Shown in pieces: positions 2,455-62,207 of a stretch of DNA of 64,000 bases (position 1 is its first letter; each line of letters starts with the position of its first letter). Position numbers and translations under genes: made by a program. The stretch lies in contig OZ024742.1 in NCBI GenBank assembly GCA_964016885.1, forward strand, positions 35,650,001-35,714,000, in the 5' to 3' direction. The notes under the pieces were generated by a model, which worked only from the letters and a program-made list of their open reading frames with translations, ran no database searches and was not told the DNA's origin. The DNA comes from Eledone cirrhosa (Eukaryota).

Positions 2455-2602
2455 AACAAAGGTGTGGTAAGATACCAGGTGGACCATGACGCACCAGAGT
2501 ACTCGATACTTAGGGTAGTAGAGTGGGTAATAAGAAAAGACTCTTTGGATCTAGCTGTCATAACGGCCGGAGCTCAGCCGTCGGGGTCCTGACTCTTTTC
2601 CT
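2455..2602. mobile_element. Mini-PLE family P1 fragment between (TA)n tracts
   Basis: Homologous to 22523-22699, 29794-29935 and 35700-35895; tail motif GTACTCGA at 2499. Confidence 0.7.
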
Positions 2603-5600
2603 ATATATATATATATATATTAGATATAAACCGACGTTTTACTATTCTATTTGCTTGAGGCGACCACAAAGCACTCAATGGAGCGAAAGTTAAAAAACAT
2701 TAGGTCCAGAGTAATCACCACAGTTATAAAGTGTGGCGCCAAGAACACCAACCGATGCACTGGCCATACATATATCACAACGATATTTGGCTGACGGAAA
2801 CTGTTATGGAGTCCCGTTAATGGACGGTATATTTAAATGAATAACCCAGACTTGTCATATACTGTGTCACGCTGGATCTCCCTGATTGATACGAACAGGT
2901 GTCCGTGGAATAATACATAACCACACACACGTAATCGTGACGAGTAGTTAGTTCATTTAATCGAAATAGTGAGTCATCATCGTCGAAAATGACGGAGGAT
3001 CGAACTTATAATTACAGTTTAAGAGATCGTGTTATCAGCGTGTGTTTAATTAATATCTGACAGGCTACTTCTCCATTGAGATTATTTCAATACAATGTAT
3101 GTATATAGCTAATTAAATATCACTTATTAATTACATTATATTTTTATATAACTAGTTGTTACTATAGAAGGCAGCGAATTGGCGTCAGGGTCTCAGATTA
3201 AACAAGCTTCGTTATTTGTTGCCGCTCAATGCGCTTTGATTTCGAATCCCGTCGAGGTCAACACTGCCTTTTCTCTTTTCGACGTCGATAAGTAAAGTAC
3301 TCGTCCTGTTCTGGGATTACATATTCTTCAACTCTCTTTCCCTTTCTCCATCCTCCCCCTCTCCCGATCCCCCCTCTCTCTCTCTCTCTCTCTCTCTCTC
3401 TCTCTCTCTCTCTCTCTCTCTCTCTCTCTCTCTCTCTCTCTCTCTCTCCCCCCTCTCTCTCTCTCGCTCTTTCTCTCCGATGTGGAAGGGATGGGCTTCG
3501 CTCGGTTTAAACTGCCCAAGACACGTCGTGTGTTAGGACGGCGTCGTTCCGACTTCGTCAAGTTACGAGAGAAAACATGAGCCATCGTGAAAGCGGCTAT
3601 GCTAAGTGACCTTTCGACATGGTAGAAATAGCAGCCAAACCTCCGAACAACCATACAATCAAAGACATTCCAGCCATGAGTCAACGTGAGTAGTCAGGTT
3701 AAACATTAAGGCATGCTGAAATAGTAGCCAAACATCTGACCGACCAAAGATCAAAGACGTTCCAGCCGTGACCATTACATTTTTACATTTTTATCCAAAT
3801 CAGTGCATAGACAATCTACATTATATGTTTTTTTTCTCACCTGGATGGGATATTCTTTTTTGTGTGAAATAGAACGAGAGAGAGAGAGAGGGGGAGAGAG
3901 AGAGAGTGAGAGAGAGATGTGGTGAGAGTGAGAAAGAGAAAATGGAAATTAAGAAAGAGACTGAGAGAAAGAAAAATGGAGAGATAGAGACGTATATAGG
4001 AATAAGAAACAGAAGATTATAAAGGAAGAAGTAAAGGATCAGCGAAGAAGAAAGAGACAACGAGAGAATAAAGATAAAGATTAGGAATAAAGACGATAAA
4101 AAGACGAAGATAGTGAATAAAATACAAAGAATGAAAGAAAGAAAGCAGGGTTGGGGTGTAACGAAAATTAAATTACTCACAGAAGGCAAATAGGAAGAAA
4201 TGAAGGAGAGAAGAGGAGGTTACGAAAGGACGTGGGGAAGAGACATGTGTGTAGAGGTTTTGGCGACAACATTTTCCTAAGGGAAGACAACAGAGAGAGC
4301 AAATTAGTTGCTTCTGCCTCAGTTATTTAACTGTTTCTTCATGCAAACACTAGGGGTTTTTTCCCCTCTATCACAGCAACATGTCAACAGACGACGCTGA
4401 TGATGGGAATTAGAGAGTCATGTAACTATACACACACACACACACACACACGCACACACACACACACACACACACACACACACACACACACACACACACA
4501 CACACATATATATATATATATATATATATATATATATAGATATATACATATATATGGCAGGCATAAATAATTCAGGACAAGAAAACATCACTAACGTAGT
4601 GTATCTCAAATGTATATGTTCATGTATATATATATATATATATATATATATATGTAGAAGTTCTATTTAAATTGTTCTATTTAATATATATATATATTTA
4701 AATATAATATATATATATATATATATATATATATATATGTGTGTGTGTGTGTGTGTGTGTGTGTGTGTGTGTGTGTGTGTGTGTGTGTGTATGGGGGCGG
4801 GGTGCAAATGTATACATGTGTGTACTTATGTAAACATAATAATATTCTTGTTTTCACAAACATAACTTAGGTGCTTATATGAAATATATTTATGAATAAA
4901 ATACTAGAGAATATATTGAATGGCTGACGGCCAGCACCATATATCAGATTCCAGCAGAAGCAGTGAAGGAGAACTGTCTACCCGCATTTCGAGGTACTGG
5001 CTCTGATCAGAACAGTGCTTTCCTGCTCTTTGCAGGAACTTGAAAACTGGAAAATAGATAGTCTTCTCGCTTGTGTAGCTAGGTTGATATGCCTTATTTG
5101 CATATGAAGCTGTGTAAGTTGGCTATGTATGCGGATACATGTATAGGATTTCTATACAAACATCAATTTATATCCATGTAACATTATTTTCTCCCTGTAC
5201 TTTCTCTGAAGAAATGCATTAGAACAATGGCGTAGTGTGAAATAATGGATTGTATTATAATACAGATTTCACATACCCTCAGTTACGTATCAAAACATGT
5301 TTAAGATAATCTCAAATATTAATAAATGTATCAGTGCACATTAACACATGTGCCTTGTTTTTCTAATAACTAATATGTATCAGATTATTCCGTAGATTAC
5401 TCATATTGGACCGATTTATCATACATGGTATCACAATTCGTATTAACCAGGTATTTACAATAAGCAGTTCCATTGACTACGTAGAGCGCAACTGAACACG
5501 CAACTTGCCTTTTTCTATTTGTATAAGCACTTTATAGCACGCACACACACACACATATATATATATATATATATATATATATATATATATATATATATAT

Positions 5601-5651
5601 ATATACACAGACACACACACACACATACACGCACACACAAACACACACACT

Positions 5652-6085
5652 GCTGAGTGGTTAGAGAATTGGATTTGTAATCGTGAGGCTGGGAGTTCGA
5701 TACACGGACCGGGCAATAGGTTATGTCTTTGAGCAAGGTATTTTATTTCACGTTGCTCCTTTTACCTGGAGTTGCGACCGATATACAGTATTAACAATTG
5801 GAAAGACCAATGGAAACATTGTTTCCTCGGTCCGATTTGACGAAAGTCGATCGAATGTCGCATGGCTTAGTGGTTAGAGCATTGGGCTTGCAACCGAAAG
5901 GTTGTGAGTTCAATTCTCGGACCGGGTGATGTGTTGTTTCCTTGAGCAAGACACTTTATTTCACGTTACTCCAGTTTACTCAGCTGTAGAAATGAGATGA
6001 TAGGACTGGGATCCCTATCATTAAATTACCCAAGACACCTCCAACGAGATATACCTTGGAGGAGGCCAGCTGAACCTGCATAGGT
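5652..6085 (+). mobile_element. tRNA-derived SINE family B, two adjacent related copies
   Basis: A box GCTGAGTGG / TGGCTTAGTGG, B box GTTCGATAC / GTTCAATTC, CORE-like TGT.CTTGAGCAAGACACTTTATTTC; copies at 8474, 16765 and 31243. Confidence 0.85.
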
Positions 6086-60345: not shown

Positions 60346-60676
60346 TGTATGTATACATATATATACACACACATGTCTTGTCTGGTATCCTGTGAGTACA
60401 CAAGTCTCACCGCTTAGCCATCATAAAGATCATTTAAACTCTGCTTCTGACGATCATCAAAAACGCACATATTTATATATAAATATATGAGTGTGTCTGT
60501 GTGTGTGTGTGTGAATGCGTGTGTGTGAGTGTGTGAGTGTGTGTGTGTGTGTGTATGTGTGTGTGTATGTGTGTATGTATGTATGTGTTTGTGGAAGTAG
60601 GAACATCCGTTATGGCTTAAGAAAAATTAGGAAAATTTGAAATTTGAAATGTAGATTTGGTAACCTATATGACTTT

Positions 60677-61110
60677 AATAATAGTTTCTACTTTTGGCAC
60701 AAGGCCAGAAATTATCCTAGTGTATTACTGGTATTTTATTTTATCGACCCCGTAAGGATGAAAGGCAAAGTTAACCTCAGCGGGATTTGAACTCAGATCA
60801 TAAAGGGCCGTAACTCTTTGCTGAAAAGTATAACGTCCGACCCTCTACAGATACGGCCAATCCACCGCCTTTAATAATGGTTTATCATTCCTTACAAGAC
60901 CCTCAGTCCACTCTACGTCTCCGGGGATCGTTACCCGATTTTCTCAAGTATTACTTATATTGATTGTTTATTATTATACACACTTACTTTCTGAGTTCAA
61001 ATCCCGCCGAGGATAACTTTGCCTTTCATCCTTACAGGGTCATTAAAATAAAGTACCAGTAATGTACTGGATAATTGCTGGCCTTGTGTCAAAAGTAGAA
61101 ACAATTATTA
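60677..61110. mobile_element. SINE A copies (60677-60870 minus, 60988-61110 plus)
   Basis: SINE A consensus. Confidence 0.85.
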
Positions 61111-61877
61111 TACACACTTCCGTTGCGACGTTTACATCTTACAGAGTGGGGGGGGGGGAGATAGAGAGGGGTGTATATGAAATCATACGTTATACATTTT
61201 TATACAATAAACATATGGGTAGACTCGTTATCAAAGAAAAATATTTTTTCTTAATGAAAAAAGTATATTTTCTCTATATCACAGAGATGCCAGTACGTTT
61301 TGAGAATGTCAGACAGCTCTGTTTCATGATTTGTTAATCTTTCGTTCCTTAATCTTTCACTCAACCCCCATTGGCATGGAAATAGACGGGAGTCTATATA
61401 GTATTTACGTGATGTACATTTGCTTGAAATGTTCATATGCATTTAGTGCGAAGCTGGTTGATTATATTTAATTTGCAGTAGCGTTTAAGATGTGTTATCT
61501 CGTGATTGGTGCCGGTACGGAGTTAAATACTTAAAAAGACATCATTCGTAAGGCAGTTCGTCACAACAATAACACCGAGTTCAGTCTATTCTCTGTTTAT
61601 GTTTGCCGTAATCCTGTAACTAATTGGCTAACATTTGCAATTTACACCTGATGACGTCGCCGAAGTATTACAGCATGATCTGATGATATAACCAGGTCAT
61701 AGAAATACGTATTTGGATTTTGCAGCATTAAAAGAATATTTGGAATGCGGTCTTCTGTTGTCATTTAACACACACACACACACACACACACACACACACA
61801 CACACACACACACACACACACACACACACACACATATATATATATATATATATATATATATATATATATATATATAT

Positions 61878-62207
61878 AAAATAAAGTTAAATAAAAGTCA
61901 AATGATTAAAATTTAGCTTCGTTTATTACTGCTATATATATTTCAGTGACAGCCATCTTTGGCTGTGACCTCTTCAGGCAGTTTGAATTAGTATGGTATA
62001 GACAAGTACATATGTTGTTTAGGTGATGATGGCTGTCACTGAAATATATATAGCAGTAATAAACGAAGCGAAATTTTAATCATTTGACTTTTATTTAACT
62101 TTATTTTACACTACTCCGGAGTAACCAAACCAACCTGCGCACTTCGTCGAGTGCTCCAGCCTGCATACTGAGGTGTTGGTATACAACCAACATAAACTCA
62201 AAATCTA
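61878..62207 (+). mobile_element. Fold-back mini-PLE with HHR at 61928-61982 (minus)
   Basis: Arms 61878-61957 / 62028-62108; minus ACTGC-CTGAAGA-GGTcACAGCCA(aaga)TGGCTGTcACT-GAAATATATATA-GCAGT; tail TCGAGTGC at 62147. Confidence 0.88.

Follow-up and report, generated by a model that had tools for sequence, protein, structure and literature searches.

Why should one short motif recur at much the same distance from (TA)n tracts in repeat families that look unrelated to one another? This question is raised by a 64,000-nucleotide (nt) stretch of the Eledone cirrhosa genome (assembly GCA_964016885.1, contig OZ024742.1, positions 35,650,001 to 35,714,000), which we refer to in full as the window. 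A preliminary description reported the motif TYGAGYRC about 30-65 nt from the (TA)n junction in the 3' tails of these families and proposed that it is a cis signal for recognition by a reverse transcriptase (RT) or endonuclease (EN), or for 3'-end formation. We found that TYGAGYRC is not a bare linear motif but makes up the 3' half of a conserved small hairpin with covarying pairs, that the elements carry this hairpin twice, and that their insertions end just before either hairpin 1 (short end) or hairpin 2 (long end). Our reading, to which we assign a probability of roughly 0.6, is that the hairpin is present in duplicate in a Hydra-like Penelope element and in the non-coding repeats that hitch-hike on it, and that the RT of the element likely binds each copy and starts complementary DNA (cDNA) a few bases upstream of it on nicked (TA)n.

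The window is 65% A+T, rich in microsatellites, and contains 108 merged tracts of at least five TA units, (TA)>=5. TYGAGYRC occurs 23 times on the two strands, compared with 7.13 +/- 3.23 expected and a maximum of 15 in 100 dinucleotide-preserving shuffles of the window. A (TA)>=5 tract begins 30-80 nt downstream of 13 of the 23 matches; the same holds for 9% of background positions. When the 215 window flanks (110 nt each) were read towards (TA)n, there were 16 forward and 4 reverse-complement matches, and 13 of the 16 forward ones lay 32-70 nt from (TA)n. Eleven of the twelve exact sites listed previously match the consensus where they were placed (2499, 9556, 9858, 10295, 28467, 10535, 11969, 12156, 37690, 43803 and 62147), and 12 more matches were found in the window. 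The twelfth site, 36664, reads CTGAGTGC and departs from the consensus at position 1, but it does lie in a variant hairpin with a 1-nt bulge.

Because the consensus had been fitted to the window itself, we took an independent sample of 120 random 10-kb stretches (1.2 Mb) of the same 3.0-Gb genome, which yielded 2074 flanks of 150 nt. The sample contained 159 occurrences of the motif in total, and at 30-69 nt from the junction there were 51 forward and 7 reverse matches. The positional enrichment near (TA)n that had been claimed thus holds in a larger sample, in one orientation only. The 77 motif-bearing tails from the sample and the window fell into 26 BLAST clusters. Therefore, the signal is not that of one amplified family, and the motif is, as first reported, common to unrelated families. 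This clustering was restricted to motif-bearing segments; single-linkage clustering of all sample tails was dropped after simple repeats fused 1346 of them into one cluster.

Alignment of the tails on the motif showed an RCTC box upstream, mostly 8-18 nt away and preceded by A/T-rich sequence. In 19 of the 26 family clusters an RCTC able to pair with GAGY was found 4-44 nt upstream, compared with null rates of 0.17 (GAGT) and 0.06 (GAGC). This pairing forms a 4-bp stem (P1) whose outer pair is A-T in 14 families, G-C in three and G-T in two. The ends of the loop pair again (P2) only if the two bases before GAG are omitted: mean P2 length was 2.74 bp with a 2-nt bulge and 0.37, 0.26, 0, 0.42 and 0.63 bp with bulges of 0, 1, 3, 4 and 5 nt. 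In 2000 loop shuffles P2 averaged 0.50 +/- 0.19 bp and reached at most 1.37; P2 was at least 3 bp long in 10 of the 19 families and in no more than four in any shuffle. Therefore, the letters of the motif correspond to the bulge (T, Y), the 3' strand of P1 (GAGY) and two conserved unpaired bases (R, C). The P2 and loop sequences are unrelated between families, and pairing, bulge and register are kept. Written as RNA, the layout is an A/U-rich leader, the P1 strand RCUC, a family-specific P2 of 3-6 bp, a loop, the 2-nt bulge UY, GAGY, and RC-U, the last base reflecting a T after the trailing RC in 14 of the 19 families. The tails had been said to share no other sequence; the upstream RCTC box, the A/T-rich leader and the trailing T are in fact also common to them.

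Within the window, a partner box lies no more than 75 nt from 19 of the 23 matches, and P2 measures at least 3 bp in 12; the four without a partner (36976, 37035, 45152 and 54655) look like chance matches or decayed copies. ViennaRNA minimum free energy (MFE) folds contained P1 in all eight window hairpins folded and P2 with the 2-nt bulge in six (z from -0.26 to -2.50). MAFFT alignment of the hairpins placed gaps inside P2. A scan for the structure that ignored the bulge and trailing letters returned 206 sites, compared with 125 in block-shuffled DNA; among the 206, the bulge is TT or TC in 97, the trailing bases are AC or GC in 96, and 71 combine the two. Among the 135 structural sites lacking the exact letters, 33 are still located 30-74 nt before TA tracts, so looser variants of the hairpin exist. 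Two sites that had been listed as looser motifs fared differently: 42632 is a full hairpin with TTGAGTTC, but 22008 is a fragment of the tail of the autonomous family described below. The small hairpin CCAGCG..CGCTGG noted beside the motif is present at 9535-9550, but it is not a general feature, and folding of the sequence after the motif did not support a second hairpin as a common feature of the stretch up to the long end (mean z -0.45; below -1 in 6 of 19 families).

What lies beyond the insertion ends was seen in a read-through comparison, in which the last 45 nt of 1603 non-repetitive tail ends were compared with homologues that continue where a TA tract would otherwise begin. In 82 forward and 2 reverse cases these homologues have the motif beginning 10-29 nt beyond the junction, and nine clusters account for the 86 sites at offsets of 8-39 nt. 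The sequence past the junction is always an A/T-rich leader starting with TA (TATTT, TAAATAT or TAATA), and the P1 box follows 5-11 nt on. The combination of a twin hairpin and two ends was found in one very abundant autonomous Penelope-like family with C-terminal GIY-YIG motifs and in four or five non-coding families. Insertions have two alternative ends, and thus what had been called the 3' tail is the stretch between the short and the long end. The reported 30-65 nt spacing is likewise the interval from hairpin 1 to a point just before hairpin 2 and not a distance to a processing site.

In the autonomous family, the order of these parts is preserved next to an open reading frame (ORF). A genome search with the 229-aa piece of a Penelope GIY-YIG remnant near C3:313.36 Mb gave 66,432 candidates, the 150 scored being 85-100% identical. 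The remnant itself was set aside, as it has the endonuclease part only and no usable 3' end. We analyzed eight copies (L125-L132), which have open frames of 645-714 aa and lie between (TA)n tracts about 3.2 kb apart; (TA)n flanks all eight. The short end reads ..CTGTTATTTTAATA (also given as ..TTTTAATA), and the long end adds about 90 nt with TATTTGCTC ... TCGAGCCC, which is hairpin 1. In L125 and L129, which have an upstream tandem part, the long end ..TTATTATTAC is followed directly by hairpin 2, TATTTGGCTCC CTCGG TTGAGCAC, and the ATG comes some 25 nt later. In these two copies both hairpins, the long end between them and the ORF form one contiguous series.

The 713-aa ORF has, by eye, the motifs YRDDG and CNCRNRVDCPLSGKC..VYKCKV..YIGLTANRFK, with the GIY-YIG motifs in its last third. 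Its look-alike clusters in the ESM Atlas carry GIY-YIG, RVT_1, HTH_animal and DUF8422. The ORF matched no Pfam family at E<=0.01, with one irrelevant weak match at E<=10, and no PDB sequence. Therefore, domain-based annotation would miss this family. A hammerhead ribozyme core of the form CTGANGA N7-40 GAAA, the single simple pattern tried, was absent from all eight copies. We call the family no more than Hydra-like, given its by-eye similarity to translated Hydra consensus sequences and the lack of such a hammerhead core in the eight copies.

Beyond the autonomous family, the order hairpin 1, long end, hairpin 2 was found in a mini-derivative (L084) and in the non-coding families F15 (L079), F17 (window 11410-11436 and 11493-11534) and F2. 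F2, with 3416 candidates in a genome search using a 135-nt query, forms head-to-head insertions in which one arm runs through the hairpin to (TA)n and the other breaks off after ..CTTTTCC, some 8 nt short of the P1 box. A genome pattern search for F2 gave 21 matches, compared with 4 in the control; five of the 21 read ..CCTTCGT up to the long end and then TATCTAGCTCC ... GTAGTYGAGCAC, one with a diverged leader. From another genome-wide pattern search, in which counts were inflated by overlapping variable-gap matches and the backward control was not comparable, only the sequences were used. At one locus (L163), 250-nt F2 units are arrayed in tandem, and the array finishes at the long end.

The units at L163 (C1, about 27.009-27.010 Mb) contain both hairpins and a GAAAC..GUC half-core and lack a CUGANGA box. 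This locus may be the source of the thousands of 135-nt F2 stumps.

The two ends are combined in a regular way. Among 75 long-end tails, 8 had no second TA tract in range, 34 belonged to one-armed and 33 to two-armed insertions. In 31 of the 33 two-armed cases the inverted arm ends 5' of the hairpin, 29 times at 8-60 nt and twice at 73 nt, where loops are large; the other two are one long+long insertion (window 9495-9910) counted from both sides. The F2 arms comprise 20 short, 11 long and 1 unclassified, and all seven head-to-head F2 pairs are long+short, an outcome that by our own arithmetic has a probability of about 0.004 if arms are drawn independently at those frequencies. Two-armed insertions thus almost always have one long and one short arm. 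The short-end arms lack the motif by construction. Several traits of a Penelope-like insertion unit were found: a head-to-head inverted 5'-truncated copy (33 of the 67 motif-bearing insertions in size range; autonomous L125 and L127), an optional one-sided extension of about 75-100 nt (eight autonomous copies and further families), and partial tandems, or pseudo-long terminal repeats (pseudo-LTRs), in autonomous L125 and L129, in F2 at L163 and in F17 at 11410-12025 of the window. The hairpins and related sites of the window are as follows.

29864..29889, plus strand: F2 hairpin 1, with ACTC/GAGT P1, UACU/AGUA P2, bulge UC and motif TCGAGTAC at 29882; long end 29934; MFE fold with P1, P2 and the 2-nt bulge, z -2.49.
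2499..2524, minus strand: F2 hairpin 1; the long end adjoins (TA)n at 2456, and the inverted arm stops at 2601, a short end just before the would-be hairpin start.
22570..22601, minus strand: F2 hairpin 1 in an internally deleted copy; long end 22524, inverted short arm end 22698.
35746..35771, minus strand: F2 hairpin 1; inverted short arm end 35894.
10282..10302, plus strand: F15 hairpin 1, ACTC CAA..UUG UU GAGU GC; long end 10363, inverted short arm end 10006.
37690..37711, minus strand: F15 hairpin 1; long end 37629, inverted short arm end 38042.
28452..28474, plus strand: F15 hairpin 1 by a decayed TA tract; short arm end 28285.
11410..11436, plus strand: F17 hairpin 1 in a tandem copy, GCTC AGGA..UCCU UU GAGC AC.
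11493..11534, plus strand: F17 hairpin 2, with leader TATTTC, then GCTC ... TTGAGCAC; it begins about 8 nt past the end point of other copies (long end ..TTATCGTG).
11950..11976, plus strand: F17 hairpin 1 in the terminal unit; long end 12025.
10535..10572, minus strand: F16 hairpin 1 in a 665-bp insertion that has its long end at 10503 and, on the other arm, a short end at 11167.
9791..9865, plus strand: F14 hairpin with a 63-nt loop, ACTC ... TCGAGTAC; long end 9910.
9556-9630, minus strand: F14 mirror copy; long end 9495, in the single long+long insertion seen (9495-9910).
2671..2712, minus strand: hairpin 1 of a single-copy family, ACTC UGGA..UCCA UU GAGU GC; long end 2621; z -2.50.
12156..12229, minus strand: hairpin with a large branched loop, GCTC UGCUA ... 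UAGUA UC GAGC AC, 83 nt from (TA)n.
43803..43823, minus strand: hairpin 1 of a family that has a full hammerhead core; the tail continues into (CT)n.
44668..44695, plus strand: F20 hairpin 1, GCTC UGAUUC..GAAUCA UC GAGC GC, 70 nt from (TA)n; z -2.43.
62113..62154, plus strand: hairpin 1 of a single-copy family, ACTC CGGAGU..ACUUCG UC GAGU GC; long end 62205.
42632..42657, minus strand: variant hairpin, ACTC UGCUC..GGGCA UU GAGU UC, with TC in place of the trailing RC.
36664..36685, minus strand: variant hairpin with a 1-nt bulge, ACTC GUCC CAU GGAC U GAGU GC.
60314..60329, minus strand: short bulge-less variant, ACTCG-TTTT-CGAGT-AC; in the genome sample its family adjoins microsatellites at the element's 5' side.
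8409..8432, minus strand: hammerhead core CTGATGA..GAAAC of the family with the long-end tail at 43803; this copy stops at the short end.
51213-51236, minus strand: second copy of the same hammerhead core.
36976 (plus strand), 37035 (minus), 54655 (plus) and 45152 (plus, a decayed F17 copy): motif matches without an RCTC partner, outside the hairpin class.

An inverted pair of canonical-looking hammerhead cores (CTGATGAGTCC..GGACGAAA) also lies between two TA tracts, at 37404 (minus strand) and 37497 (plus strand). Rfam at the gathering score reported no hammerhead in the window despite the full cores found by pattern, and at E<=1 no hammerhead was among the 150 matches listed of 265, which were microsatellite and palindrome noise. 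The single Rfam match at the gathering score was tRNA-like, at 5863-5920 (plus strand; 31.4 bits, just over threshold). A small family beside TA tracts ends with the tRNA-like sequence GGTCC..GAATCGAAC, with related tails at 5606, 8690 and 31464, and the tRNA-like family is probably a tRNA-derived short interspersed element (SINE). Near-perfect palindromes of 80-200 nt beside long A/T runs (36160-36470 and 55491-55590) were the source of spurious microRNA matches at E<=1 and resemble fold-back or miniature inverted-repeat (MITE-like) elements unrelated to the hairpin class. No relevant Pfam family was found among the ORFs of the window, and stop-free frames of 406-641 aa at 38252-41793 (minus strand), which matched no Pfam family, may be low complexity. 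Long imperfect trinucleotide arrays of (AAC)n, (CAC)n and (ACC)n, 0.5-1.7 kb in length, occupy 23562-25263, 28799-29571 and 15176-15722.

Based on this genomic anatomy and on analogy with Poseidon_Ac (PMC11167929), we infer that the insertion ends are start points of reverse transcription and that the hairpin is the feature recognized by the RT. In this mechanism, the RT would recognize the hairpin and begin on the adjacent A/U-rich leader (UAUUU, UAAAUAU), which would pair with a nicked (TA)n primer. Head-to-head arms could arise if the pair of hairpins on a single RNA serves to prime both nicked strands of a target, and the non-coding families could be mobilized in trans because they have kept only this module. 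The cis signal suggested in the preliminary description survives in part: a tie to reverse transcription fits ends that lie 5-11 nt upstream of the hairpin and an autonomous element that carries it, but the unit is not the 8-mer.

Several observations weigh against this reading. The exact start is not placeable because each leader starts with TA and merges with (TA)n, and one-armed insertions make up 34 of the 67 in the size range. The stems are short, 7 of the 26 clusters have no partner box, and the sense RNA can barely be separated from the complementary strand (P2 of 2.74 bp with Watson-Crick plus G-U pairs, WC+GU, compared with 2.42 bp with WC+AC). Because the ORF has no Pfam or PDB sequence match, its identity as RT/EN draws on motifs seen by eye and on language-model look-alikes. 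Poseidon_Ac starts inside one AC-rich stem-loop, whereas the starts proposed here are just 5' of two conserved hairpins, and it needs no target homology, whereas the leaders here resemble (TA)n.

Near-equal scores for the two strands are also what would be expected if the signal acts on DNA, either as a GIY-YIG endonuclease site or cruciform or as a fold of first-strand cDNA used in second-strand priming or resolution. An inverted repeat with covarying halves suits DNA equally well, and the D. virilis Penelope endonuclease is reported to need tail sequence for recognition (cited in PMC11167929). We nevertheless consider this unlikely: insertions here are into (TA)n and not into tails, G-U occurs in 2 of 19 P1 outer pairs and in 6 of 52 P2 pairs with no A-C outer pair among GAGC families, and the short-end copies lack the hairpin altogether, yet are the commoner arm. 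Counts of G-U against A-C, tried as a test of the folding strand, do not settle RNA sense versus complement.

Ends 5-11 nt 5' of the hairpins would be expected from a cleavage site as well. This is the alternative offered when the motif was first noted, that of an RNA 3'-end formation or processing signal, in which transcripts are cut or terminated just upstream and cDNA is primed at the RNA end. Against it, hairpin 1 is copied into every long-end insertion, and therefore RNAs reaching past hairpin 1 are templates; tandem copies read through both points; and in Poseidon_Ac initiation is internal and extra 3' sequence did not shift the main product (PMC11167929). This makes a processing signal improbable. 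The position of hairpin 2, about 25-35 nt before the ATG in the autonomous family and in the Hydra-1_Ajap consensus, together with leaders that resemble TATA boxes, would fit a promoter, a transcription-start element or a 5'-UTR (untranslated region) control element of the pseudo-LTR, with nearness to the ends being secondary. However, both hairpins are kept in non-coding families, covariation in P2 indicates a folded strand and not a promoter box, and the ends coincide with hairpins in many families, so we give a promoter little credence. It is very improbable that the motif lacks a function of its own and reflects descent from a single ancestral tail or base composition close to (TA)n: all carriers are Penelope-type elements of one genome, so that common tail ancestry is plausible, and raw counts are inflated by high-copy families, but the signal persists at the family level and in one orientation, pairing, bulge and register are kept while P2 and loops are unrelated in sequence, and the hairpin also occurs in coral and sea-cucumber consensus sequences.

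Initiation of reverse transcription at the two hairpins remains our preferred explanation. We tentatively suggest an extension of it, in which a dimeric Penelope RT-EN sitting on the twin hairpins of one RNA might launch two cDNAs from two fixed internal points, one for each side of the cut (TA)n, and the hairpin might be an ancient portable start tag, retained from coral to this genome and copied by ribozyme-bearing RNA parasites. If true, a dimer on twin hairpins would account for two features that have puzzled the field, namely the one-sided tail and the head-to-head arms. The long-standing questions touched are how Penelope-like reverse transcription starts, how arms and tail originate, and how non-coding ribozyme repeats are mobilized. 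A hairpin of about 25-45 nt and fixed register (P1, 2-nt bulge, P2) would make them testable by mutation. The hairpin marks both kinds of insertion end and is common to an autonomous family, for which candidate copies number in the tens of thousands, and to its parasites. It could serve as an annotation marker of element ends in TA-rich invertebrate genomes, which is useful here because the ORF escapes Pfam and the ribozymes escape Rfam.

Partner long interspersed elements (LINEs) and SINEs share 3' stem-loops that are recognized by the LINE reverse transcriptase. The elements described here are similar in that the non-autonomous members keep only a short RNA module that would be read by the autonomous enzyme. 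By contrast, the LINE/SINE module is at the very 3' end and is copied, whereas here copying would start upstream of the module; there are also two modules here, and the enzyme is of the Penelope/telomerase lineage.

The closest mechanistic parallel is Poseidon_Ac, a single vertebrate element studied in vitro (Frangieh et al. 2024, PMC11167929). An AC-rich stem-loop within its RNA contains two adjacent internal sites at which reverse transcription begins, and the tail corresponds to what lies between them. The two strands of the target are each cut and extended, and a dimeric protein is predicted. Added 3' sequence left the main product in place, so that initiation is internal. In both systems the optional one-sided extension is the segment between two start points, which for our elements are inferred from the ends, and the starts are inside the RNA, near a stem-loop and downstream of a hammerhead. 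Extension of both DNA strands also fits the head-to-head arms seen here. The extension differs in length, being about 75-100 nt here and 30-40 nt in Poseidon_Ac; it likewise exceeds the 30-40 bp described for Penelope-like tails in PMC8557442. Our motif, known from genomic sequence, is also common to unrelated families and phyla.

The Hydra clade comprises C-terminal-endonuclease Penelope-like elements in which a hammerhead is stated to be always present (Craig et al. 2021, PMC8557442). The family here resembles the clade as described there in its (TA)n insertion, single ORF of about 700 aa, C-terminal GIY-YIG motifs and length of about 3 kb, and, by eye, resembles the Hydra consensus translations in having CNCR..CPL.G.C..VY...YIGLTAN.FK and YRDDG. 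It differs in that its eight copies have no CTGANGA..GAAA core. The words "hairpin" and "stem-loop" have no matches in the main text of PMC8557442, and as far as full-text searches show, the published literature on Penelope-like elements does not describe such a hairpin. We read six Hydra consensus sequences from supplementary File S7 of that paper by eye. Hydra-2_Amil, from a coral, has GCTC TACAC .. GTGTA TT GAGCAC after the hammerhead, about 30 nt before the 3' end. Hydra-1_Ajap, from a sea cucumber, starts with two hairpins just before the ATG (GCTC TGTCC .. GGACA TA GAGCAC TCT and GCTC CTGA .. TCAG TC GAGCAC TCT), and Hydra-2_Ajap has TATATATTTAG GCTC TGC .. GCA TA GAGCAC TCT near its 3' end. 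Hydra-1_Obim, Hydra-1_Amil and Hydra-1_Crog showed only variant or doubtful forms. Motif matches in the Naiad and Chlamys consensus files were mostly in coding sequence; in the 3' UTR of Naiad_Mmer, the site GCTC TGTC .. GGCA TT GAGTAC has hairpin-like pairing but is located some 400 nt short of the consensus end and not at an element end.

A further comparison is with the animal non-LTR retrozymes of a recent preprint (Li, Clavereau and Pollet 2026, 10.64898/2026.07.22.740005), which are proposed to be non-autonomous derivatives of Penelope-like pseudo-LTRs. Retrozymes are small, non-coding tandem units with hammerhead motifs. F2 likewise forms non-coding tandem units, of 250 nt, but has no full canonical hammerhead core, only the GAAAC..GUC half-core, whereas one other family of the window has the full core. 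The abstract of the preprint names no cis signal shared with an autonomous partner, and the hairpin pair described here is a candidate for one.

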